This document shows positions 20,024 to 61,433 of a DNA stretch of 64,000 bases, piece after piece (the first letter of the stretch is position 1; every line of letters begins with the position of its first letter). Position numbers and translations under genes: made by a program. The notes under the pieces were generated by a model. The model had not been told where the DNA came from, made no database searches, and saw only the letters and a program-made list of their open reading frames with translations. This DNA comes from a virus. The stretch spans positions 1 to 64,000 of IMG/VR virus record IMGVR_UViG_3300028400_000004; one strand, 5' to 3'.

Positions 20024-21211
20024 ATGTCTGATAAACAAGAACTTCTAAACCAGATTAAGGAAATGATCGCCGCTAAGGTGGATGAGGCGGTAAAACCTTT
20101 GAAAGAGGCTTCCACTGCCGATTGGAAGAAAGATATTTACGGAGCCGACAAGGTACAGAATAAAGCTGTTCCTGCCGCTCGTATTGTTCGCGCCCTGGCA
20201 GCTGCTCGTGGTGACATTGAAAAGGCTGCTCGTTTCGCCAAGCGTGCTTGGGATGACGAAGTAGGCAAAGCCATCAGTGCCACTTTTGAAAAAGCCCTAG
20301 ATGCCGGCGTTCCTACTTCTGGCGGATTTATGATCCCCGAGGATATGGTATCCGATATTATTGATCTTCTGCGTCCTCGGTCTGTAGTCCGTGCTGCTGG
20401 TGCTCCTACCGTACCTATGCCTCGTGGTACTCTTACTCTGCCCAAGCAGACCGGAGACGTAACCGCCAGCTATGTTGGTGAGTCCACCGATATTACTAGC
20501 TCCACCCCTGCTGGTGACCAGATTGTATTGTCCGCTAAAAAGCTGGCGGCTCTTGTTCCTGTATCAAATGACCTGCTAACTTATGATGTTGGCGACAGTG
20601 CTGATCGGTTTGTCCGAGATTCTCTTGTTCGTCGTATCGCTGTCCGCGAAGATGCTGCCTTCCTGCGCGACGATGGTACTGCCAATACTCCTACTGGCCT
20701 TCGCTACCAAGCTGCCGCTGGTAATGTAATTGCTTCTGCCGCTACTAGCGCCACCGATGCTGCTAATATTGAAGTCGATCTTATCGGTGCCATCAATGCC
20801 CTTGAAAGTTCCAATGTTGATATGAGTGGCCCCGCTTGGTTCATTTCTCCCCGAACCAAGAATAACCTGATGAAACTTCGGGATGCCAACGGCAACCTTA
20901 TTTATCCTGAGCTTCGCAGTGATACGCCAACTCTATATACCTTCCCTGTGTTTGTAACTACAAACATTCCTACCAACCTAGGCACCGGCACTAACGAATC
21001 AGAAATTTATCTAGCCAATATGCCTGACACTCTTATTGCAGAAACCGGAGGTCTTGAAATCACTGCCGATCCTTCTGCTGCGTATATTGAGGGTGGTACT
21101 CTTGTATCTTCCTTCTCTCGTGACCAGACTGTAGTTCGTGCCATTGTACGCCACGACTTCACCGTGCTTTATCCTGAGTCTGTGGCTGTACTCACTGGCG
21201 TCCTATACTAA
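20024..21211 (+). CDS. HK97-fold major capsid protein
   Basis: GGFMIPE, YVGE, KKLAALVPVSNDLL, LRDANGNLIY; strongly biased codon usage. Confidence 0.95.
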   Translation: MSDKQELLNQIKEMIAAKVDEAVKPLKEASTADWKKDIYGADKVQNKAVPAARIVRALAAARGDIEKAARFAKRAWDDEVGKAISATFEKALDAGVPTSGGFMIPEDMVSDIIDLLRPRSVVRAAGAPTVPMPRGTLTLPKQTGDVTASYVGESTDITSSTPAGDQIVLSAKKLAALVPVSNDLLTYDVGDSADRFVRDSLVRRIAVREDAAFLRDDGTANTPTGLRYQAAAGNVIASAATSATDAANIEVDLIGAINALESSNVDMSGPAWFISPRTKNNLMKLRDANGNLIYPELRSDTPTLYTFPVFVTTNIPTNLGTGTNESEIYLANMPDTLIAETGGLEITADPSAAYIEGGTLVSSFSRDQTVVRAIVRHDFTVLYPESVAVLTGVLY

Positions 21212-33200: not shown

Positions 33201-36200
33201 GGTGCGGTTGCTTCCGCTATTTTAACTGTTACTAATCCTATTGTGTCTGGATTAACAGCTACAATAATACAAAATAGGGTTAAATTATCATGGGGAACTT
33301 CACCCGGCACATGGCCTATTGATAGACACGAAATAGTTATAGATGGAGATGAAGCGAACAAAATAAAAATAAATGGCAATAATAATGCCTATTGGCTAAA
33401 TGACTTATCATTAGGAACACATACTGTTATTGTTAGGGTTGTATCCATTGTTGGCGCATCCCATGAGCAATCAACAACTTTTGACATTATAGACCGGCCT
33501 GTAGGTACAGTAGATGATAGTGGTGTCTTTGTTAGAAATTGGGAAACAGATGCACAAATAAATGAATTACAAAGTACTACTTATACCTTATTAGCAAAAA
33601 GCAATTTAGGTCGTAATGGCGGTAATTGTTTAGATATTACTCCAGATAGTTCAGGCAAACATTCACATTATACATCCACATGGGCAACTTCTTTATTACC
33701 TGATAAAGTACAAACTGCGTTATTAGCAAAACGAGTAAGGTTTCAATCTTACATAAAATCAAAAGATGGAACAACCCCTCCGAGTGCTGGAAATATTATT
33801 TACTGGGATGCTAATTTTAATGATGACATAATGACAACGGGGAATCAAGAACATAGTGGTAATGGTTACCCATTTTTTAGTGAAATTATTTATGATGCCA
33901 CCGATCCAGATAATTATATTGTTAGACCCGGAGATGTTTTAAGAGTACAAGCAGAATTAAAGGTTGACAGTGTTGCTCAAGCTGCTGGAGTGAATTCTCG
34001 TCTATTTGTATATATTGTAGGGAAAAATAAAAATGATAATACAACACTATGGTTAGATTCAGTAAGCATTTCTTCCAATTCTACTACTTATCAATTATTA
34101 GATACAGAATTTGTAATAGCTAATGATGTAGCGATAAATGATTATACAATATATAAAGTAGGTATAGATGTTTATCACTTTCCTTCATCAATAACTGATG
34201 GAATAGCCTATGCTAGAAACATAAAAGCCACAATACATGGAAAAGCATTTTCAATATCAACACAAAATTCAGTTATAACAGACGATTGGATTAATATAGG
34301 TGCTATAGTTAAAATTCCTTCATATGCAACAAATATCCGATATGGTGTAGCTCCTTCGCATGATCGCGCAGATGGAAATGGATGTTTATTGGATGACTTT
34401 TCCATATTCCCAGTACCTGACAAAATAGATTCAAATAATATTGAACAATGGATTTCAAAGGCTGCAATTGGCGATGCGTACATTAATAGTTTAATTGCAG
34501 ATAAGATTAAAAGCGGAACAATATCATCAGAAGTTATTTATGTAGGCGATCAATCTATACAAATAGATGGGGCAAATAATTGGATTTTAATAAAAGACAA
34601 ACAGGGGACTCCTAAAAGCAGGGTAGTATTAGGTAAAACGGGACCTAATGCTACCGATTATGGTATTACAATATATGATGAAAATGGTAATGTATTATTA
34701 GGAACAAACAGATCTTTTGATAGTAGTTTAGTTGATGCTTTAAGTACGCAAAATGCACCGAAAGAAGCCGGAGCCACCGCTACTGACCCAGCAAACATGG
34801 TCCGCAACGGCTCTCTGATAGCAGACAATGACAACTTCTCGACTTGGGGCTATGATTCTGACGACGGCGATCAGACGAAAGGCTGCGTGTACCAGGTCGG
34901 GAAATACTGGAAATATTCGGATCAGTACATCCCCGTTGATCTCAACAAGGCTTATGAGCTTTCTGCCAGCTTCCGCACCTTGCTTCCTAACACAACGCTG
35001 TATGCGGGTTTTTCGTGCTACGACAAGAACAAGAAAAACATTTTGTTCCGGCATTGTTGGCGTTACGCCGGGCGCGACACGACCCTATATGCAGCCGCGA
35101 ATGTAGGCGACACGGCGGTTCAGATTGTGCCGCCGCCTACCGCGTGGGACGCGCCTGGAAATTCATACATTGTTTTCGCAGTACAACCCGACTATTCGGA
35201 CCTGCCAAATTTCAACGACTACAAGATCACAAACATAGACACGTCCACGGAAGCAAGCGGGTATTGGATCATCACGTTGGATACCGCGCTGACCGACAGC
35301 TACGCGGCCGGGACCAGTGTCGGCAACGTGCGCGGCGGCAATACATGGCAGTATGCTCTACTTGCGAATCAAGTCGTCGGCACTTCATGGGTCCGTAAGC
35401 AGGCCAAAATAGCAGGCGTCAATGATCCTACCTCGCCGGCAGGATATACGCAGTTTCGCCGTGGGACAGCGTACATCAAGTTCATGGTGTACACGAATGT
35501 AAACCAAACCGACACAACGAAAGTCGATGACGTGCTGCTCTTACCCTTGCCAGACGAGCAAAATCTGGATGCGCTGAATCTGTCAAACGCGCCGCGCGAG
35601 GCCGGAGCAGACAACACCGGCAACCGCATCTACGGCACCGGCGGACTGCTGCCGAATTGGAATCTTGACATCATCGATGGCGAAGGCAAGCCCGCTGGTA
35701 TTCAGCCTGTTGAAGGCGTCTCGGACCGAAACGGCATCGCCGCGACGGCGGACGGGCTGAAGATTCAGCACCCGTCGGATTGGAATGTTGCTTATGGCTT
35801 CCCGGCAATACCGATTGATGACAAGCAGCGATACCGCGTTGTCATCACGCACCGGAGCGGGCAGTCCACGACGACGGGGCTGTATTTGAGGTTCAACGAG
35901 CTCAACACGGCGTTGCCGCAGGGGCAGACTCACGTAACCGCCCGCACGAGCTTCAAAGACCTACTCGCCAATGGCCCGATGCCCGGCCCCGCCTGGGTCA
36001 CAGATGAGTATAACTACACCCCAACACTGGGGACGAAATTCGCTTCGTTCTCAATGTATCACTGGGGCAACGCCGTCTCGTTTGAGTACGAAATCGATCG
36101 CGTGCAAATCATCCCGATAGCAAAGACGGCAAGTGACATTGACTACAGCGATGGCACGAACGTTGATTCGTTGAAACCGAAAGAGCCGAACGCGGATACG

Positions 36201-47785: not shown

Positions 47786-48025
47786 TTATTTATTAGAAAC
47801 TATAAGTACACCGACAGACCCAGTTGATGGGTCTTCACAAGTTAAATTTACTTGTACTTGTCTGCAAGCCTCTGGATCATATACATCGTTACTAGCAAGA
47901 CAATACTCTCTTAAATTAGCAATTTCATCACCATCTAAACAAACCATAACTTGAATCCCTTTATCTCCGTAGGCACATCCTACTAATAGCACAAATAAAA
48001 ACACTAAAATAATTTTATTTATCAT
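47786..48025 (-). CDS. small lipoprotein
   Basis: Signal peptide with lipobox LVGC and four further Cys. Confidence 0.7.
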   Translation of the reverse strand: MINKIILVFLFVLLVGCAYGDKGIQVMVCLDGDEIANLREYCLASNDVYDPEACRQVQVNLTCEDPSTGSVGVLIVSNK

Positions 48026-48035
48026 TACAATACCC

Positions 48036-48230
48036 TCATAAAATACTATTTAAGTAGTCTATAAATTCTACTGAAAACTCATTCTCAACCAAATCCATTG
48101 CTACTTTTGCAATCTGTTCTAATTTTTCATTCTCAAAATCTGATTTAATTAATACTTTATTAATAAGATAAAAAAGTTCTGTAGAATTTAATGATAATAA
48201 ATAATCTTCAATTTCTGTATATTTATTCAT
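48036..48230 (-). CDS. small acidic hypothetical protein
   Basis: 64 aa, first gene of the leftward block. Confidence 0.55.
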   Translation of the reverse strand: MNKYTEIEDYLLSLNSTELFYLINKVLIKSDFENEKLEQIAKVAMDLVENEFSVEFIDYLNSIL

Positions 48231-48335
48231 ATAACCACACCTAATATAAAACTCAAATTTTAGTTAATAAAGAAAACTTATCATATATGTCAAGACAATT
48301 CAAGAAAGGAGAAGTTGATACTGATGCTTGTAAAT

Positions 48336-48358
48336 GAAAATGAGAATCATTCTCATTT
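48336..48358. promoter_or_regulatory. Fur box
   Basis: Palindrome AAATGAGAATCATTCTCATTT; 16/19 match to the Fur consensus. Confidence 0.65.
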
Positions 48359-48456
48359 GGCGGCATAAAAATAAACACCAAGCCACTTTTCAATTACTAC
48401 TATACTTGCAAAATGCCAATGCTTATTTATTAAGCAAGGGCAATCTTGCCTTTAAT

Positions 48457-49039
48457 CCTGCAAGGAGACCACCACCTCTGGTATCTAAAAATTAAATATA
48501 TAAATATAAACGTTAGATTCGTCCTACTTCGTAGGACTCATCTTGTAACAAAATATAAATATAAAAATTACCTACAAGGAGAATCTACCTACTTAATTAC
48601 TTTTAATTATTTAATATATTGTAACGCTAGATTCGTATCACTTCGTGATACTCATCTTTTAGCTAAAACAAATTATTATAATTTAATACAAGGAGAACTT
48701 AACCACTATTTTCTTATTTATTTCTTATTTAATTAGTATTGTTATCCTCGTATCACTTCGTGATACTCGTCTAGTAACTTTACTATAAAATAAAATTTAA
48801 TTTTTTCCTACAAGGAGATTCTATCCTCTATTAATTTTCTTACTTTGGTTTTAATACCTAGTATTGTTAGATTCGTCCTACTTCGTAGGACTCATCTTGT
48901 AACTATTACTAATTTATTAAAATTAAAATAATTTATTTTCCTATAAGGAGATACATACACTTAGAAATTTTAAATTAAATTTTATTATTTTATATAGAAT
49001 TGTTATCCTCGCACTACTTCGTAGTGCTCGTCTAGTAAC
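48457..49039. repeat. array of five 38-nt hairpin repeats, each preceded by a YAAGGAGA motif
   Basis: Units at 48512, 48626, 48741, 48866 and 49002; compensatory changes in inner and outer stems. Confidence 0.9.
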
Positions 49040-49050
49040 TTTTCTAATAA

Positions 49051-49063
49051 AATCAATAACTTA
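49051..49063 (+). promoter_or_regulatory. IHF-binding consensus
   Basis: AATCAATAACTTA fits WATCAANNNNTTR with an upstream AT tract. Confidence 0.45.
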
Positions 49064-49129
49064 TGGTTTTGAGTTTACTCAAACTCAAGACACACTTATC
49101 CTTAAATCCCTTTAACTCTGGCCACGTAG

Positions 49130-49310
49130 CCATTTTATTTCTTTATTTAACTTCTTTATTCTTTTAATTTCTTTATTTTCTTATTTTTTCTTAATTTCTT
49201 TATTTAATCCTTTATTTTTAATTCTTTTAATTCTATCTTTTTAGATACTTCTTATTTAATTCTTTATATTTGATTCTTTTAATTTCTTTATTTTATTTTT
49301 TTTATCATAT
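49130..49310. other. T-rich low-complexity tract (possible DNA-unwinding element)
   Basis: About 180 nt of TTTA/TTCT repeats, almost no G. Confidence 0.55.
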
Positions 49311-49319
49311 GTCACTCCG

Positions 49320-49865
49320 TTCTTGCGGATTCTTTCATCCTCGTCGGGCTGTTCGCCCGACTCGTTTCAAGCATCCGCATGTTCGAACTTACATTCATAT
49401 TTCAGTTTGTTTAACTTTATGGCTGGCGCGTGGGAAAAAGGCACAATTTGGCCTAGCAGACCAAAGTTGTACCTGCCAAAAATTTGGCTTTTTTCTTGAA
49501 AAAATTAATGAAAAGGCACCTTACCAATGGTTACGTTTTTACACGCGGGGACGGGAGGCCCGTGTCGCCCCTCTTACACATACTTGGGTATCGCTACGCC
49601 TCGGCAGACACATACGACCTGGTAAGTAGCCGTATGGTTCACACCCCTTAATTCTATGGGGTCTCTTGTAGATTCTTTGCCCTCCGGGCGGCCCGCGGCG
49701 ATCTACTTACCGCTAGCCTTGTTGCCTCACCCAACCTGCGCAGCATTACCTGCGCCAGGAATCTAGGCATCTGGATATTCACAAGACCCGTCCAGACCGC
49801 GGTATATCAAATTGTAGGGAGAGCACCCGTAACGAAACTCAGCTAGTGCTTGGTTTCATTACGCT
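49320..49865 (-). ncRNA. GC-rich structured non-coding RNA candidate
   Basis: Downstream of a consensus promoter; multiple stems, no credible ORF. Confidence 0.5.
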
Positions 49866-49869
49866 AGCA

Positions 49870-49898
49870 ACAATAGCACATGCAAATACGCTTGTCAA
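49870..49898 (-). promoter_or_regulatory. sigma70 promoter firing into the non-coding region
   Basis: TTGACA-N17-TATTGT with extended TG. Confidence 0.7.
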
Positions 49899-50074
49899 CT
49901 ATGTTGCAAAATCAGCATCAACACGTTTATTGAAAAATGCGTGCTGAGAACCGTTACACATATATTATCGGCATGACCCCTCAATAGTTTAACTATCCTA
50001 GTAGCTTATCTGCTTGGTTGTTTTGTCTCCTATAACGTGCTAACATAATTGATAAAAATTAATGGTATATAGGT

Positions 50075-50794
50075 ATGAAAAAGGACTTTTACAAAAAATA
50101 TTTTGGATTTATAAATTCAATAATAGAAAAGACGGTTTGTGATCCTTATAATCCAGAACGTAGAGATGATTATCTACAGGAATGTTATTTGGCATTGCTT
50201 GAGGCTAAAGAGAAGTATGATGACAAAAAATCGTCATTCTCTAATTATGCCTACATCGTTGTTAGAGGACGATTGCTTGACTACATAAGAAAGCAAACTT
50301 CTTTATCTAGAGAAGATTACAAGATAGTAAATACGATTCAAAATTTGATTAGTGAGAAAGGTATAGTACGCTATGAGGATATAAGTAAGAATTTTAACGT
50401 AAGTAAAGAAAGGTTTTATAGATTGTTGTCTTTAAGTAAAAATAGTAATTACAAAGATTTATTATATTTTAATTATGATTATTATAGTAATGATGATTTT
50501 GAAGTGGTTGTAGAAGATAAGAAAGAATTAAAAATGCAGTTATATATAAAACCGACACAAGTACATAGGATTGATAATAATAAATTTAGAAAAAAATTAG
50601 ATATTTATTTAGATAGGTTGACTGCTAAGGAGCGTACAGTTATAAAACTGAAATATTATCACGATAAAAGTATTAGTGAGATAGCTTCAATATTTAATGT
50701 TTCGGTAGCTGCGGTTAGTCATATGCATAAAAAGGCAATTAAAAAATTAAAGTCATATATTGGTGATAACGTAAATGAATACCTACATGATTAA
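50075..50794 (+). CDS. sigma70-family sigma factor, FliA/WhiG-like
   Basis: Region 2 DDYLQE...FSNYA...RGRLLDYIRK; region 4 LTAKERTVIKLKYY...SEIA...VSHMHKKAIKKLK. Confidence 0.85.
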   Translation: MKKDFYKKYFGFINSIIEKTVCDPYNPERRDDYLQECYLALLEAKEKYDDKKSSFSNYAYIVVRGRLLDYIRKQTSLSREDYKIVNTIQNLISEKGIVRYEDISKNFNVSKERFYRLLSLSKNSNYKDLLYFNYDYYSNDDFEVVVEDKKELKMQLYIKPTQVHRIDNNKFRKKLDIYLDRLTAKERTVIKLKYYHDKSISEIASIFNVSVAAVSHMHKKAIKKLKSYIGDNVNEYLHD

Positions 50795-50963
50795 AATAGT
50801 TAAGTCAGAATCAGCAGATGATTGGTATCATGACCTTATAGGATACCTACTTCCATTAGTAAGAGAAGAATCCGATTGTTATCTTAGCCGAGATGTAGCA
50901 GGTTACATTAGAAAAGTAAATAAAGAAGATGCAGAGGTTGTATATGATGAAGCGCCCTGGTGA
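50775..50963 (+). CDS. hypothetical protein
   Basis: 62 aa, overlaps both neighbours. Confidence 0.55.
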   Translation: MNTYMIKIVKSESADDWYHDLIGYLLPLVREESDCYLSRDVAGYIRKVNKEDAEVVYDEAPW

Positions 50964-51177
50964 CGTTGTATATGAAAAGATGAGCGCTCTTGGTATGTCG
51001 GTAGATGAACTTGCAAAGGCCCTGGGATTGACGTATAGGCGTTTTGAGGAGCTGCTAGACTCAGAGCTTGTCATTACGCCAGAATTGGCTGAGAAGCTGT
51101 CTAAGGCGCTTGGTGGATGTTCTAAGTATTGGATGGATTTGGAAAATAAATATGTCAGAGATTACAACGGGTTTTGA
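50944..51177 (+). CDS. HigA-like XRE HTH protein (orphan antitoxin-like)
   Basis: RPGDVV.E...GMS...LAKALG...ITPELAEKLSKALG...YWMDLE..Y. Confidence 0.78.
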   Translation: MMKRPGDVVYEKMSALGMSVDELAKALGLTYRRFEELLDSELVITPELAEKLSKALGGCSKYWMDLENKYVRDYNGF

Positions 51178-54596: not shown

Positions 54597-54922
54597 AAAA
54601 AGAAGAGCTTGGTAAAAGATTTAATAATGGAAAGCTAAAGATGTCATTATTATTAGAGTGTGATGATGCATTAGATGGGGCTGTTAGATGTTTGATGCAT
54701 GGAGAAAAAAAGTACGGCAGAAATAATTGGAAGAAAGGATTAAAATACACAGAAATTATTGATAGTTTACTTAGACACTTAAACCAATTTATGCGAGGGC
54801 AAGATGTTGATTTAGAAAGCAATTCAGAGTATAATCACGTTGACGCTATTGTAGTTAATGCGTTGTTTTTGTCTTACATGTTTTATAAACGAAAAGATTT
54901 AGATGACAGGGGTGCAAAATAA
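54587..54922 (+). CDS. DUF5664-type dATP/dGTP diphosphohydrolase domain protein
   Basis: GKRFNNGK, GEKKYGRNNWKKG, SLLRHL, DLES...H...NALFL. Confidence 0.8.
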   Translation: MYMKKEELGKRFNNGKLKMSLLLECDDALDGAVRCLMHGEKKYGRNNWKKGLKYTEIIDSLLRHLNQFMRGQDVDLESNSEYNHVDAIVVNALFLSYMFYKRKDLDDRGAK

Positions 54923-55287
54923 TGGCATTGATTTTATATGCTAGAAAAGGTGATGTTTTTTACATTGATGATGTAAAGCTAAAAGTTGAGAAGTTAATTT
55001 TTGAACCTACTAAGACAAAGAATCCAATTGTAAAAAAGAGTTTTCCATATTCTATGGTTTTGTCTGTTTTTACAGATAAAGGCATGGAAAAATTTTTGAT
55101 TACTAAGGAATGTTTTACTAGTGTACCTGGTTATCCAGACTGGTTACTTGCAGTAGGTTCTCGACACAAAGAAGATAGTAGAAGTTTGTCATTAATGTTT
55201 GAAGTTCCTAAAGAAAATAAGATTTATCGAAAGAAGATTTACGATAAGATTAAGAAGCAAGAGGTGGAAAATCAAAATGGATGCTAA
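54922..55287 (+). CDS. double-length CsrA/RsmA-like protein
   Basis: N-terminal ALILYARKGDVFYIDD resembles MLILTRRVGETLMIGD; C-terminal VPKENKIYRKKIYDKI resembles APKEVSVHREEIYQRI. Confidence 0.6.
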   Translation: MALILYARKGDVFYIDDVKLKVEKLIFEPTKTKNPIVKKSFPYSMVLSVFTDKGMEKFLITKECFTSVPGYPDWLLAVGSRHKEDSRSLSLMFEVPKENKIYRKKIYDKIKKQEVENQNGC

Positions 55288-56495: not shown

Positions 56496-56989
56496 AAAAT
56501 AAAAGAATTTCTACGAGAACATACAAATTTCTCATAAAAGATGAGAATAATGTCTATGCAAAATTAGAGAATTTATTTAGGGTAATTGTTTTGCTAAGGA
56601 GAATTTTGATTGAGGATCGGAGACGTGTCCAGGCGAGTTCCGATAGAATTATGGGTACAAATGAGCAGGTTTCTAGGTTTATTGATATTAAAGACGAGAC
56701 ACCATTAAATTTAATACCATATGATACTGCATTGGCAATTATAAAAGATATTTCTGCTTATCATAATAAGAATAAACATGTTCCTAATATTGGTGAATTT
56801 TATAACATAAAAGTGCCATTTTATTGTTCAGTATCATATAGATATGATGAGATGAATGTGCCTGGCATTGGAGTCATCAAAATTAAAAGAGATAAGCCTA
56901 TTCCTAGAGATAGGAGTGTCATTGTTTCTAATATTTATAAAAAAGGCAAATCATGGTACGCAGACTTAGTGACGAAAAAGAAGGAATAG
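56492..56989 (+). CDS. TnpB/OrfB-derived protein, WED+REC only (no RuvC)
   Basis: RTYKFLI, KLENLF, DIKDE.PL, VPGIGVIKIKRDKPIP and KGKSWYADL match the TnpB N-half pattern; ends before RuvC-I. Confidence 0.65.
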   Translation: MKNKRISTRTYKFLIKDENNVYAKLENLFRVIVLLRRILIEDRRRVQASSDRIMGTNEQVSRFIDIKDETPLNLIPYDTALAIIKDISAYHNKNKHVPNIGEFYNIKVPFYCSVSYRYDEMNVPGIGVIKIKRDKPIPRDRSVIVSNIYKKGKSWYADLVTKKKE

Positions 56990-57585
56990 TATTATTAGAA
57001 GTAATAAGGACATTAGACTTATTTTCAGAAAAAAGCCTAAAGATACTCAAGAATAAAATAAATAAAAAGTTAGGGACGAATATAGAAGAAAAGGACCATT
57101 TAATATTTCTTACATATTTATTAGATGAATTAAAATCTATCGGAATAGTTTTAGGTGATGGTAATGTTTATTACGATTTATCACGATATAATCTGGATAA
57201 AGATTTGTTTATAAAGGCATTTGAAACCCTACAGACATCAGCCGCAACATTTAATGTAAAATCACGGGTTGATTTTTATAATTATATAAAATTTGTAATA
57301 CATTTAACTGTAAAATATATATCTAATAATTATATAAATAATGATTTTACGGATACGATTCGCATTTTAATAAAAAATGGATTGGAAAATAATTTAATAG
57401 ATAAAGAAACTGCAAAGAAGTTGCGGGGAAAGTTAAAGCATTTTAATAGTAGATCATTGTCATTGAATAATATATGCCACGTTATTTCTGAGGAGCTGTA
57501 TTACGTCTTTGATTATTCATTTCCCGGTTATTCTAATTCCGAATTTTTTGTAAAGGCAGCTTTGAAAAGGTTTAATAATAAATGA
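56953..57585 (+). CDS. hypothetical protein upstream of the helicase
   Basis: 210 aa, coupled overlaps. Confidence 0.65.
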   Translation: MVRRLSDEKEGIVLLEVIRTLDLFSEKSLKILKNKINKKLGTNIEEKDHLIFLTYLLDELKSIGIVLGDGNVYYDLSRYNLDKDLFIKAFETLQTSAATFNVKSRVDFYNYIKFVIHLTVKYISNNYINNDFTDTIRILIKNGLENNLIDKETAKKLRGKLKHFNSRSLSLNNICHVISEELYYVFDYSFPGYSNSEFFVKAALKRFNNK

Positions 57586-58952
57586 ATTTATCAAAATCTA
57601 TCCAAGAGAACATTCTCCGTATTATTTCATTTGATGATGAGAATTATAAGATTTTCCGGGGATTAGTACCATTGCGGGTTTATGATTCAAAGTATAAGCC
57701 TATTGTAAAGCGGGTTTATAATTATATTGATGAATTTGATGAACCGCCGAAAGCACATTTAGTAGATATTACTGAGGATTTGTTGAAGGAAGATAAATCA
57801 TATTTATCGGTTATTGAAGGTGTTTATGAATTAGAAGATGTAAATGTAGAATATACATTAAAAAAAGTTAGAGCCTTTATTAGGTTACAGGAAATAAAGT
57901 TAGGCATATTAAAAGCTGCCGAAGTTTTAGATACGGCAGATGATGAGGAGTCTTTAGAAGAAGCCGAAGATATTATATTAAAATCAATAAAGAATACACA
58001 TAAAACCTTTGATCCAGGTTTAGAGTTTTCCATAGATGCTTTAGATTCTTTAGATCAAGAAGCTATTGAGTATTTTAGAACTGGTATTAAGTTTTTAGAT
58101 ACTCATAATTTGGGACCTGCACGAAAGAAGTTACACCTATTTATGGCTCCTGCCAAGTTCGGGAAAACTTGGTGGCTTATTCATTTAGGAAAAGAAAATG
58201 TTATGGATGGCAAAAAAGTATTACATTTAACATTAGAAATGAGTCAGTCTAGTGTTGCTAGGCGTTACTTGCAGTCATTCTTCTCTATATCTAATAGAAA
58301 TGAATTGTATAACATATATAAATTTATTCACGATTTAGATGGAAAGATGAGTGATCTTGAGGAATATGAGTTATACCCTAAACACACATTTGAAGAAGGC
58401 AGCTTGAAAGAAAAATTAAAAAATAAAATAGAGAAAGGTAAAAGATATTTTGATAATTTAATAATAAAAGAGTTCCCCACAAGTTCTTTAGCTGTCAGAG
58501 AATTGGACAGTTATTTGGACATGCTGGAGCGTGTAAAAGGTTTTATTCCTGATATTATTATAGTTGATTATGCAGATTTGTTACGCTTAGAAGGCAATGA
58601 TAAACGTATTGCTACTGGAGAGATTTATAAGAATCTACGGGGGCTTGCCATGTCACGAAATGTGGCTATTGCTACAGCCACCCAAACTAATAGGGGGGCA
58701 TTGAACAAGCGCCTTGTTAGTGAGATAGATGTAGCAGAGGATTATTCTAAGATACAGACGGCAGACTGTGTTATTACGTTGAATAAGACAGAAGCAGAAC
58801 GTGAACTAGGTCTTGCCAGGTTATATGTAACTGCTGCGCGTGATGACGTAGATAAAATGGAGATTTGCATTTCACAGGCTTATGGGATTGGCCAATTTGC
58901 GTTAGATAGTGCTTTAACACCTAAAGATTATGAAACATTTATAAACAAGTAA
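57582..58952 (+). CDS. DnaB-like replicative helicase
   Basis: Walker A APAKFGKT, TLEMS, IIVDYADL, TATQTNR, AEDYSK. Confidence 0.9.
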   Translation: MNLSKSIQENILRIISFDDENYKIFRGLVPLRVYDSKYKPIVKRVYNYIDEFDEPPKAHLVDITEDLLKEDKSYLSVIEGVYELEDVNVEYTLKKVRAFIRLQEIKLGILKAAEVLDTADDEESLEEAEDIILKSIKNTHKTFDPGLEFSIDALDSLDQEAIEYFRTGIKFLDTHNLGPARKKLHLFMAPAKFGKTWWLIHLGKENVMDGKKVLHLTLEMSQSSVARRYLQSFFSISNRNELYNIYKFIHDLDGKMSDLEEYELYPKHTFEEGSLKEKLKNKIEKGKRYFDNLIIKEFPTSSLAVRELDSYLDMLERVKGFIPDIIIVDYADLLRLEGNDKRIATGEIYKNLRGLAMSRNVAIATATQTNRGALNKRLVSEIDVAEDYSKIQTADCVITLNKTEAERELGLARLYVTAARDDVDKMEICISQAYGIGQFALDSALTPKDYETFINK

Positions 58953-58953
58953 G

Positions 58954-60462
58954 ATGGGTTATATATCAAAACAATATAAATACGATTATTTCAATAGAGA
59001 CTTTAATGATTGGAGAGGGCTCAAAAAATTAAAAGAAGATAAAATTGATCTATTGTATAAGGAAACTGTAGGTAATTTAGAGCTTAAATACCAATTAAGG
59101 AAGCATCAGAAAATAGGTGTTATTTTAGGCTGTATGCTTGAAAAGTTTTTATTAGGATATGATATGGGGTTAGGAAAAACCTATATGTCATTGGTCATAT
59201 TGAAGAAGAAATTTGATGAAAAAAGGATAAATAAATGTTTGTTTTTAGTACAAAATTTATCAAATATTTATAATATATCAGATGAAATAGATAAATTTGA
59301 ATTAGGAATGTCCTATGTTTCATTAGATGGAGGCAGCCAAAGTAGAAAGGAACTCTTTAATAAAGATTATCAAATATATATATTAAATTACCAAGGATTT
59401 ACTGCTTATATAAAGAGATTCGGTTATAAGGATTTGTTAGGCAAGTTCGATGCTTTTATTTTTGATGAAATGCATAATTTAAAAAATAAAAAAACAAAGT
59501 TATATAAATATTGTAAGCTGTTATCTAAAGATTCAGTAGTAAAGATTGGATTAACCGGTACCCCTTTTGACAGAAACCCATTAGATTTTTGGACGCAGTT
59601 GGATATATTAGATGGTGGACAAACATTAGGAAGTTATAATACATTCTTAAATATGTTTTTTATAAAGAAATATAATTATATGGGTTATCCAGAATGGAAG
59701 TTTGATAAAAGAAAAGTAAACAAGTTTTTATCGATATTATCTAATAGATTTATTTATTATGGCACAGAAGAATGTAATGATCTACCTAAAAAAGTTTACA
59801 ATACTATAAGGTTTAAGTTGCCAGATAATGTATATAAAGAATACAGAAAGATGTATAACGAGTTTAAGAAACAGTTTAAGGGGGACGAGAATGATTTAGA
59901 TAAACTGTCATTAGATGTTAATTACATAAAGTTAAAACAATTATCTTCTGGGTTTGTTAACTTGACTGAGCGGTTGGATGATTATAAAGTAAGCAAGATA
60001 GTAGAATTTGATAATCCAAAGTTGGACTTGTTGGTTGATAATTTGCGAGCCATACCTAAAGGAAAAAAGTCAATAGTATTTGTTAATTTTATACATTCAG
60101 GTAAAACTATATTTAAGAGATTAAACAAGGAAAAGATAGGATGTGTTCTTATTGATGGCGATACTAAAGATTTAAGAAAATCTTTTTATGAATACAAAAC
60201 TTCAAAAACAAAAAATGTTTTGATTATAAATGCTATCAGAGGAGGTACTGGACTTAATTTACAATTTGCCAATTATTGCTTTTTCTATGAGACGCCTATA
60301 ACTGTAAGACACAGAAAGCAGGCAGAAAAAAGAATACATAGGGATGGCCAGGTTAATACTTGTTATTATTATGATTTTGTTGCATTAAACACTTACGATG
60401 AGCGTGATTTGGTGAACCTAAAAATTGGCATAGAGACTTTTGATAAAATGATGAAAAAATGA
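58954..60462 (+). CDS. SNF2-family SF2 helicase
   Basis: DMGLGKT, DEMH, LTGTP, GGTGLNLQ, QAEKRIHRDGQ. Confidence 0.92.
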   Translation: MGYISKQYKYDYFNRDFNDWRGLKKLKEDKIDLLYKETVGNLELKYQLRKHQKIGVILGCMLEKFLLGYDMGLGKTYMSLVILKKKFDEKRINKCLFLVQNLSNIYNISDEIDKFELGMSYVSLDGGSQSRKELFNKDYQIYILNYQGFTAYIKRFGYKDLLGKFDAFIFDEMHNLKNKKTKLYKYCKLLSKDSVVKIGLTGTPFDRNPLDFWTQLDILDGGQTLGSYNTFLNMFFIKKYNYMGYPEWKFDKRKVNKFLSILSNRFIYYGTEECNDLPKKVYNTIRFKLPDNVYKEYRKMYNEFKKQFKGDENDLDKLSLDVNYIKLKQLSSGFVNLTERLDDYKVSKIVEFDNPKLDLLVDNLRAIPKGKKSIVFVNFIHSGKTIFKRLNKEKIGCVLIDGDTKDLRKSFYEYKTSKTKNVLIINAIRGGTGLNLQFANYCFFYETPITVRHRKQAEKRIHRDGQVNTCYYYDFVALNTYDERDLVNLKIGIETFDKMMKK

Positions 60463-61433
60463 GCTTTGATATAATAAAGTTTTTAGAAGAAAATAAAATA
60501 GACTATGCAAGTGATGGGAAGAATTGTGCCCAGGGAAACGTTGTAATAAAGTGTCCTTGGTGTAGCGATGATCCTTCAAAACATTTAGGTATTAGGGTCA
60601 ATGGAAAGTTTGCATATGGATGTTGGAGAAACCCTATGCATAGGGGAACTAAGCCTTATAAGTTGGTGGCAAAGTTACTTAATGTTTCAAACAAAAAGGC
60701 TAAGGAAATAGTTGGAAATATTATAGATTATAAGGTTGATGATTTTATGGATGTAATAAATAGTTTAAAAGGCTACGCAAATAAAGAGATTGAAGATAAT
60801 AACGTAACTCCTATTAGATTGTATAAGTTACAAAATAACACTTTAATGGGAAAGATTGTTTTTGGATATTTAGAGACTAGAATTAATAATGAAATTGATA
60901 TATATGAATTTATAGATATGTTTAATTTATGTTATTCTGATGGGAAAGGGGCTTATAGGGTTTTCATGCCAGTTAAGTTTGGCGGAAAGTTCGTGTCTTT
61001 TGTTGGAAGAAGTGTTAGTGATAGTAAGATGCCAAGATATTTAAGTGGTTCTAAAAAATTTGGAGTAGGTAACTTAAAAGATTATATATATGAACATGAT
61101 GATAAATCAGATTTTTTGTTTATAACTGAAGGCCCATTTGATATGATGCGCTTTCATTATTTATTAAAAAAGAATAATATAAATGCAGATGCTACTTGTT
61201 TATTTGGTATAAATGCAAGCAAGAAGCAAAAAATAATTATTGATGAATTATCTAAAAAATATAAAAAGATATTTATACTTTTTGACGATGGGTTTGATAT
61301 GACAGCAGCCCAATTGAAATTGTCATTGACTTGTGATAACGTATTTGTTAGTAAAATACCTAATGGTTATAAAGACCCAGGCGAATTAGACACTAAAGGT
61401 GTGTATGAAATTATCCAATCTGTCGGATTGTGA
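60459..61433 (+). CDS. DNA primase (Zn-binding + TOPRIM)
   Basis: CPWC...H...CW, FVGR, ITEGPFD, LFDDG, KDPGE. Confidence 0.88.
   Translation: MSFDIIKFLEENKIDYASDGKNCAQGNVVIKCPWCSDDPSKHLGIRVNGKFAYGCWRNPMHRGTKPYKLVAKLLNVSNKKAKEIVGNIIDYKVDDFMDVINSLKGYANKEIEDNNVTPIRLYKLQNNTLMGKIVFGYLETRINNEIDIYEFIDMFNLCYSDGKGAYRVFMPVKFGGKFVSFVGRSVSDSKMPRYLSGSKKFGVGNLKDYIYEHDDKSDFLFITEGPFDMMRFHYLLKKNNINADATCLFGINASKKQKIIIDELSKKYKKIFILFDDGFDMTAAQLKLSLTCDNVFVSKIPNGYKDPGELDTKGVYEIIQSVGL

Follow-up and report, generated by a model that had tools for sequence, protein, structure and literature searches.

Five covarying hairpins in a non-coding gap of an uncultured hydrothermal-vent phage as candidate signals of a transcription-primed replication origin

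Background

Replication origins are unmapped in nearly all uncultured phages. Which function an array of five similar hairpins has in a non-coding gap of such a phage is the question of this study. The array lies in the first 64 kb, here called the window, of the IMG/VR virus record IMGVR_UViG_3300028400_000004, a linear sequence of 83,753 bp from hydrothermal-vent metagenomes with an estimated completeness of 79%. The uncultured phage is a double-stranded DNA (dsDNA) siphovirus of roughly 100 kb with a GC content of roughly 32%. Its array is situated in a 1.8-kb gap between divergent genes (48231-50074), within which no credible open reading frame (ORF) was found. An earlier inspection of the letters alone (the sequence-only reading) had suggested signals in single-stranded DNA (ssDNA) at an origin, or an RNA with boxes for CsrA. 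The best explanation, to which we assign a probability of about 0.4, is that of hairpin signals: the five units would act on the displaced minus-sense strand of a transcription-primed origin of the ColE1 or T4 R-loop type.

The hairpin units and their covariation

The five units of 38 nt (Table 1) follow each other at spacings of 114, 115, 125 and 136 nt, with spacers of 76-98 nt between the hairpins, each of which contains a conserved box. Read in the minus sense, a unit consists, in order, of an outer stem of 4 bp (GUUA/UAAC or GCUA/UAGC), a bulge of 3 nt, a lower helix of three positions, a tandem 5'-GA/3'-AG, a variable stem of 7 bp and, closed by C-G, a GAA triloop. Units 1, 2 and 4 have GAU/AUC as their lower helix, units 3 and 5 (type B) have GAC/GGA. 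In the latter, the middle pair is kept by a change from U-A to C-G, and the other two Watson-Crick pairs are replaced by a second tandem G.A/A.G. The core hairpin pattern had five matches with 0.14 expected, the full 38-nt pattern five with 0.00 expected. No further copies of either pattern were present elsewhere in the record, and a covariance model built from the units and run on the whole record recovered only the five units. All units of the sequence-only reading were located where it had placed them (48512, 48626, 48741, 48866 and 49002), and its inner-stem variants, invariant TTC loop, TC/TC flanks and alternation of GTTA/TAAC with GCTA/TAGC in the outer stem were seen again.

Among the five units of this one genome, 94% of the cells of the 14 pairs were paired; six pairs had changed on both sides and none on one side. 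The covariation score of 0.457 was reached by 0 of 500 shuffles, and slid controls scored 0-0.16. The sole unpaired cells in the structure are the G.A and A.G of units 3 and 5, and not a single G.U or G.T pair occurs among the 70 cells. The spacers have diverged with many insertions and deletions (indels), the hairpins and boxes have been kept. The hairpin structure is clearly under selection, and the full compensation that had been noticed before was confirmed. Contigs of four other vent runs were compared with the region. One of them, of 1,592 nt and from another vent study, contains pieces with roughly 82-95% identity to units 3, 4 and 5 in another arrangement, with one duplicated piece. 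The seven indels listed for this contig are all confined to the spacer that separates hairpins 3 and 4; hairpins and boxes have none. The array hence exists in a related strain with a differing arrangement of its units.

A sixth variant had been proposed at about 49343. A hairpin with TC flanks is indeed present there, in plus-strand letters with the stem 49343-49349 / 49355-49361 and the loop TGTTC, enclosed by TGCGGAT/ATCCGCA. Its membership in the family is doubtful: the loop has 5 nt, the hairpin lies within the GC-rich stretch described below, and the array covariance model did not recover it at E <= 10. It was rejected as an array member.

The folding strand

The minus strand is more stable than the plus strand in all five units, with RNA and DNA parameters alike. 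The G.A pairs and the GAA triloop are confined to the minus strand. Read on the plus strand, the same type-B positions would give four mismatches between pyrimidines, and a large internal loop would separate the conserved outer stem from the rest. Because of the tandem G.A pairs, the type-B replacements and the higher stability, we take the minus-sense, purine-rich strand as the functional fold, in agreement with the C-GAA-G triloops and tandem GA/GA pairs that had been assigned to this strand. A C-GAA-G tip beside sheared G.A pairs is the classic tip of DNA mini-hairpins.

By their spacings, all five hairpins come to lie on the same side of the B-DNA helix: at 10.42 bp per turn R is 0.98, and a comparison with random spacings, in which the helical repeat was a free parameter, gives p ~0.005. 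For the boxes no such phasing was seen (p 0.08). Together with the absence of G.U and G.T pairs and the C-GAA-G tip, the phasing, which by itself is suggestive only, leans towards a function at the DNA level.

The conserved boxes

The motif YAAGGAGA occurs eight times in the window. Five copies belong to the array (48461, 48575, 48689, 48811 and 48944), each 51-58 nt upstream of a hairpin. The conserved box is larger than formerly described: it comprises (T)TYCCTAYAAGGAGA, in total 12 nt, and a C and a CT are also kept 6-10 nt downstream. Neither an ATG, GTG or TTG at ribosome-binding distance nor a tiny ORF follows the boxes, so that both the distance of 51-58 nt and the lack of a start codon in the sequence-only reading hold. 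Other roles for the boxes and units were tried and rejected. A descent from degenerate half-hairpins was suggested by weak similarity only (z 1.1 direct, 2.4 inverted), driven by box 2. AGGAGA as the presumed -35 element of a sigma factor like SPO1 gp28 lacked a conserved -10 element at a fixed distance. Separate promoters within each unit would need a -35/-10 pair, and no consistent one was present on either strand.

The surroundings of the array

All results on promoters, terminators, IHF sites and DnaA boxes come from consensus scans of the sequence. Read leftward on the minus strand, the gap presents in this order a sigma-28-type site, a sigma-70-type site, a GC-rich stretch of 548 nt, an AT-rich tract, the array, a 12-bp hairpin and the first leftward gene. 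The sigma-28-type site points leftward, 84 nt from the start of the FliA-like sigma gene of the phage; the sigma-70-type site lies 553 nt upstream of the AT tract. The GC-rich stretch folds with -197 kcal/mol as minus-sense RNA (z -4.9) and with -174 kcal/mol as plus-sense RNA (z -2.7), and is by this prediction a candidate for a large structured RNA in its own right. None of the 4227 Rfam families had a match at gathering score in the window, and with E values up to 10 only chance-level matches appeared in 48200-50100. Between the GC-rich stretch and the array lie positions 49131-49310; no other 180-nt window of the 83.7-kb genome is as rich in AT, and none has as strong a purine/pyrimidine asymmetry. 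Judged by composition, the tract may be an unwinding element or an R-loop tract. The hairpin at 48332-48358 may mark the 3' end of a minus-sense RNA. No minus-strand terminator-like site was listed in 47900-50300, and so none between the promoter sites and the array.

On the plus strand, a promoter-like site scoring at least 10/12 was absent upstream of the array (48457); the sole match there scores 9/12 and falls, at 48160-48187, within the first leftward gene. Terminator-like sites of this strand were found at 49316-49329 and 49475-49488. The latter belongs to a terminator-like hairpin at 49475-49497 within the GC-rich stretch, GCCAAAAATTTGGC followed by TTTTTTCTTG, which would end transcription running rightward out of the array ahead of the sigma gene.

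The region had been called an origin-like divergence region. The divergent gap is real, but the minimum of the cumulative GC skew, at 49.9-50.1 kb, coincides with the divergent promoters and not with the array, and the skew is confounded by the direction of transcription. The array itself has a GC skew of the same sign as the leftward-transcribed genes.

A proposed transcription-primed origin

What the sequence shows are the covarying hairpins and their asymmetry between the strands, a promoter consensus, extremes in composition and the gene content. From these we infer transcription, an R-loop, hairpin formation in DNA and all protein contacts as follows. Transcription would fire leftward from the sigma-70-type site (49898-49870) and yield a strongly folded RNA of ~550 nt. 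This RNA would enter the 180-bp tract and remain there as a hybrid; the tract is 88% AT, and its RNA copy 77% purine. The family-A DNA polymerase of the phage would extend it leftward. The displaced strand, which has the same sequence as the RNA, would fold into the five C-GAA-G hairpins with tandem G.A pairs, and these would act as repeated loading or priming sites for the DnaB-like helicase and the DnaG-like primase. The phage encodes the parts that such an origin needs: Pol A, a DnaB-like helicase, a putative loader, a DnaG-like primase and a single-stranded DNA-binding protein (SSB).

Precedents for the elements of this scheme are known. They include mini-hairpins of the d(GCGAAGC) type, the single-strand initiation (ssi) signals of the G4 type, RNA II of ColE1 with its primosome assembly site (pas), the pair of RSF1010 ssiA/ssiB and RepB', and the R-loop origins oriF and oriG of T4. 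In ColE1, RNA II of 555 nt forms a hybrid at the origin and is extended by Pol I, and a primosome assembly hairpin is located on the displaced strand. As in ColE1 and at T4 oriF/oriG, a promoter-like site of the vent phage would feed a long structured RNA, here ~550 nt, into an easily unwound tract, a polymerase of the Pol I family is encoded, and the hairpins are placed on the strand that synthesis of the leading strand would displace. Sequence similarity to these origins is absent, however, five evenly spaced hairpins stand in place of one pas site, and for the phage the hybrid, its processing by RNase H and the start sites are presumed. With the ssi signals of the G4 type (phages G4, St-1 and alpha3, plasmids) and of RSF1010 the array shares strand-specific hairpins with tips of the C-GAA-G type, and a phage or plasmid primase as the presumed reader; folding of the hairpin on one strand only, which characterizes ssi signals, was found for the minus strand of the array. 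Those signals are single sites or two to three different hairpins of ssDNA phages and plasmids, whereas a five-fold phased repeat with an AAGGAGA box occurs here in a dsDNA siphovirus. The d(GCGAAGC) mini-hairpin of Hirao and colleagues likewise has a GAA triloop closed by C-G and sheared G.A pairs beside the helix, on the purine strand only. The vent units differ by variable 7-bp stems in a two-tier hairpin of 38 nt. In its tip and strand specificity the hairpin matches DNA mini-hairpins and G4/ssi signals, in its setting origins of the ColE1/T4 type.

Several points weigh against this origin. The phasing test was made post hoc on four spacings, two of them nearly identical; a rough reconstruction of the related contig gives spacings of ~117, 127 and 135, which fit the phasing less well; and helical phasing would matter for proteins bound to duplex DNA, not for hairpins in ssDNA. 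Known ssi and pas signals have one to three hairpins, not five evenly spaced copies. The model assigns no role to the conserved AAGGAGA boxes of 12 nt. The promoter-like sites are consensus matches only, and the same evidence from promoters and folding would fit a pure RNA function equally well. The GC skew tracks gene direction throughout the genome and is thus no independent evidence of an origin. DnaA boxes are not enriched beyond chance level, and an IHF consensus at 49051 is also at chance level. The previous proposal of ssDNA signals at an origin gained support from the context, namely the leftward promoter-like site, the folded 548 nt, the AT-rich asymmetric tract and the adjoining replisome genes, which a role as minus-sense RNA would fit almost as well; the skew adds none.

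If the array is such an origin, promoter, folded RNA, an extreme AT-rich asymmetric tract and a strand-specific array of GAA/G.A hairpins would form a signature that can be searched for in other phages, and a large dsDNA phage would employ several copies of the DNA mini-hairpins known from small ssDNA phages and plasmids. The further-reaching view that the locus represents a new type of dsDNA phage origin, in which a structured pre-primer RNA of ~550 nt forms an R-loop at the 180-bp tract and five mini-hairpins of the displaced strand serve as loading sites for helicase and primase, is in our opinion unlikely.

Alternative explanations

The minus strand may function as RNA. The array would then be part of a non-coding RNA of ~1.5 kb, or of a 5' leader, which starts at the 49991 site and/or the 49898 site and ends near 48332-48358 or enters the leftward genes; the hairpins would be repeated protein-binding or stabilising modules and the UCUCCUUGUAGG boxes pyrimidine seeds resembling an anti-Shine-Dalgarno sequence. 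We regard this as the main rival, only somewhat less probable than the origin. The two leftward consensus sites, of the sigma-70 and sigma-28 type, the preference of the GC-rich 548 nt for minus-sense folding, the lack of a listed minus-strand terminator-like site before the array, the strong minus-sense hairpin just past it and an array skew with the sign of the leftward genes are all consistent with such a transcript. Units 3 and 5 fit in addition the consensus of the kink-turn (K-turn), with C-stem, 3-nt bulge, G.A and A.G. Units 1, 2 and 4, however, have the Watson-Crick pairs G-C and A-U at 1b.1n and 2b.2n and lack this geometry, and the phage record holds no protein of the L7Ae type; as a class for the whole array the K-turn was rejected, since only units 3 and 5 conform. 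Further, no Rfam family matches, G.U pairs are wholly absent, helical phasing is not predicted by an RNA function, among the sequencing runs listed for the stretch none was of RNA, and to our knowledge triloops are unusual among selected RNA hairpins. If RNA is the functional form, the phage would possess, besides its sigma factor and CsrA-like protein, a new modular non-coding RNA; under this reading as under that of an origin the hairpins are clearly selected and match no described family. A transcript of the opposite strand could serve as a sponge or decoy, its five UACAAGGAGA boxes binding CsrA of the host or the CsrA-like P0007 of the phage, with the hairpins as spacers or stabilisers. 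The accumulation of five of the eight YAAGGAGA copies in the array, the lack of anything translatable after the boxes, the plus-strand terminator-like sites and the very G-poor plus-strand spacers, which would leave the GGA boxes exposed, agree with a sponge. The conserved left part of the box, UACAAGGA, matches the CsrA core obtained by systematic evolution of ligands by exponential enrichment (SELEX). It also resembles the CAAGGAUG site of a preprint (10.1101/2025.07.22.666180). CsrB and RsmZ, too, carry several boxes with A(N)GGA in a non-coding stretch, and a CsrA-like gene (54922-55287) with a sub-threshold CsrA match exists in the phage genome. In contrast to CsrB and RsmZ, the array offers one box per 115-136 nt, outside of hairpin loops, on a strand for which no promoter-like site of at least 10/12 was found upstream, and its hairpins fold better on the other strand: the plus strand turns the TC/TC flanks and the type-B lower helix into pyrimidine mismatches and makes the kept outer stem senseless. 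The CsrA identity of the ORF is unproven. The match to Pfam CsrA PF02599 (E 9e-5; 22.7 bits, cut-off 27) covers the C-terminal part only, a sequence match in the PDB was not obtained, and the AlphaFold model of P0007 (pLDDT 83) had no match to a CsrA fold in the fold search; its Atlas neighbours include viral clusters bearing CsrA, which is a lead only. From the suggestion of CsrA boxes there remain the UACAAGGA boxes and a sub-threshold CsrA-like gene, but the strand it requires has no convincing promoter site and folds worse, and a sponge is therefore improbable. According to the preprint (10.1101/2025.07.22.666180), nuclease-dead TnpB relatives are connected with CsrA and with FliA-dependent promoters in the control of flagellin. 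By coincidence, the vent phage combines a FliA-like sigma factor with a CsrA-like ORF; the array may be unconnected with them.

Alternatively, the units may be read as duplex. They would be DNA sites for an oligomerising protein, i.e., an initiator, a repressor or an enhancer-binding protein, which occupies one face of the helix and by wrapping or looping controls the divergent promoters or melts the AT tract. The helical phasing of the five palindromes, their nearly invariant outer parts, the separate conserved 12-bp box, the Cro/C1-type gene (50929-51177) and the sigma gene nearby, and the presence of sigma-54 sites elsewhere in the phage speak for duplex sites. A protein that does not read the inner 7 bp gives no reason for them to stay self-complementary while they change, nor for the non-palindromic TC/TC flanks to become G.A pairs on one strand. 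The boxes are out of phase, and no sigma-54 promoter is near the array; an enhancer array for sigma-54 was rejected, as a -24/-12 site is missing in the vicinity. We give duplex sites a small chance only. Least probable is that the array arose by a recent tandem duplication and has no function of its own, or that it serves for recombination in the manner of integron attC or invertase hix sites. The different arrangement of the units in the related contig, including a 'goes back 195' joint, and the GTTRRRY-like ends would be in line with it. Against a functionless duplication stand the spacers, diverged with indels, beside hairpins and boxes that were kept and compensated. Sites of the attC or hix type were rejected because a cognate recombinase is lacking, with no resolvase, tyrosine recombinase or Y1 transposase (PF00239, PF00589, PF01797) in the 79%-complete record, and because the order of the R'/R''-like boxes is reversed compared with attC.

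Comparison with other repeated elements

Other families of repeats were compared with the array. The early promoters of the N4 virion RNA polymerase have, like the minus strand of the array, a short stem (5-7 bp in N4) and a purine loop of 3 nt, and like the array they occur in several copies in a non-coding region; in N4 the hairpins are extruded from duplex DNA. Their flanking consensus is different, and here no genes follow the hairpins. A search for an RNA polymerase of the N4/T7 type (PF00940) gave no match in the record and likewise none in the control genomes, and is thus uninformative. The promoter early stem-loop (PeSL) cassettes of T4-type phages are also repeated intergenic stem-loops with conserved flanks; unlike these, the vent array has no genes between its hairpins and no consistent promoter in its units. 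An origin of the iteron type, with close repeats of 17-22 bp, was dismissed: the units are 114-136 bp apart, their inner arms vary, and an initiator gene was not identified. A CRISPR array was dismissed as well, since the repeats differ by compensated changes and the 'spacers' of 76-98 nt hold a conserved box. For the combination of five-fold phased repetition, a two-tier hairpin whose lower helix is interchangeably of Watson-Crick or G.A pairs, and a paired AAGGAGA box, no counterpart was found in Rfam or the literature.

Relatives

A blastn search of the gap against 50,697 phage records had no match. The hairpin patterns gave nothing, or chance matches without complementarity, in viral contigs, no match in metagenome contigs and seven single chance-level matches in genome contigs. 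Relatives were also sought via the sigma factor, the small subunit of ribonucleotide reductase (RNR), a beta-helix protein and the CsrA-like protein in viral and metagenome collections, and none were obtained. Homologues of the sigma factor and the CsrA-like protein in other assemblies had 51-83% identity, those of the CsrA-like protein 75-83%. With tblastn against cultured phages, distant matches to the sigma factor were the only ones.

Genome context

The gene content is that of a large siphovirus, with portal, protease/capsid, HK97-type capsid, tape measure and a tail protein of 2,283 aa. Left of the gap, the minus strand encodes an acidic protein of 64 aa, a lipoprotein of 79 aa, a protein of 175 aa and beta-helix proteins. 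Right of the gap follow, on the plus strand, the FliA-like sigma factor, a helix-turn-helix (HTH) protein, both RNR subunits, thymidylate synthase, the DnaB-like helicase, an SNF2 helicase, the Toprim (DnaG-like) primase and a clamp-like protein; a putative helicase loader (56953-57585) is encoded as well. Past the end of the window, the record continues with the family-A polymerase Pol A, a clamp loader, a gp32-like SSB, RecA/UvsX-like and Mre11/Rad50-like proteins and the large terminase.

Table 1. Features of the array, its surroundings and nearby genes (positions in the window; structures of the minus strand in RNA letters)
Feature	Position	Strand	Description
12-bp hairpin	48332-48358	-	z -5.0; U-rich 3' side; between array and first leftward gene
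Box 1	48457-48468	+	CCTGCAAGGAGA; without hairpin upstream
Hairpin unit 1	48512-48549	-	GUUA / CAA bulge / GAU / GA / GUCCUAC-GAA-GUAGGAC / GA / AUC / UAAC
Box 2	48571-48582	+	CCTACAAGGAGA
Hairpin unit 2	48626-48663	-	outer stem changed to GCUA/UAGC; inner stem GUAUCAC/GUGAUAC
Box 3	48685-48696	+	AATACAAGGAGA
Hairpin unit 3, type B	48741-48778	-	lower helix GAC/GGA = G.A, A.G, C-G directly after 3-nt bulge; K-turn-like look
Box 4	48807-48818	+	CCTACAAGGAGA
Hairpin unit 4	48866-48903	-	38 nt identical to unit 1
Box 5	48940-48951	+	CCTATAAGGAGA
Hairpin unit 5, type B	49002-49039	-	inner stem GCACUAC/GUAGUGC
AT tract	49131-49310		180 nt; 88% AT; 78% pyrimidine on plus strand; degenerate TTCTTTATTT repeats
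GC-rich stretch	49315-49862	-	548 nt; no credible ORF; up to 56% GC
Sixth-variant hairpin	49324-49379	-	7-bp stem, GA flanks, 5-nt loop, closed by UGCGGAU/AUCCGCA; 3' end of GC-rich stretch
Sigma-70-type promoter-like site	49870-49898	-	TTGACA-17-TATTGT, TG before -10; among 15 genome sites scoring at least 11/13
Sigma-28 (FliA)-type site	49965-49991	-	perfect consensus TAAA-N15-GCCGATAA; sole one in 83.7-kb genome
FliA-like sigma gene	50075-50794	+	beside gap
Cro/C1-type HTH gene	50929-51177		near sigma gene
CsrA-like ORF P0007	54922-55287	+	121 aa; ends MALILYARKGD... and ...IYRKKIYDKI CsrA-like, ~55-aa insert between
DnaB-like helicase	57582-58952		replication module right of array
Toprim primase	60459-61433		replication module right of array

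The ORFs at 67095-72261 of the record constitute a recombination/replication set in the style of T4, with the gp32-like SSB, the RecA/UvsX-like recombinase and the Mre11/Rad50-like nuclease pair; Pol A and the clamp loader adjoin. A pair of MoxR-type AAA+ and vWA proteins is encoded on the minus strand at 74364-76585 of the record. Directly left of the gap, the 79-aa ORF (47786-48025, minus strand) bears a lipoprotein signal (…LLVGC) and may code for a lipoprotein associated with superinfection exclusion or lysis. The major capsid gene (20024-21211, plus strand) forms a GC-rich island with 49% GC, and the nearest cultured relatives of its protein are capsids of GC-rich Burkholderia phages (43-46% identity). 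Composition and relatedness suggest that the major capsid module may have been acquired from a different lineage. A second GC-rich island was observed at 35001-36000, within the tail protein gene.

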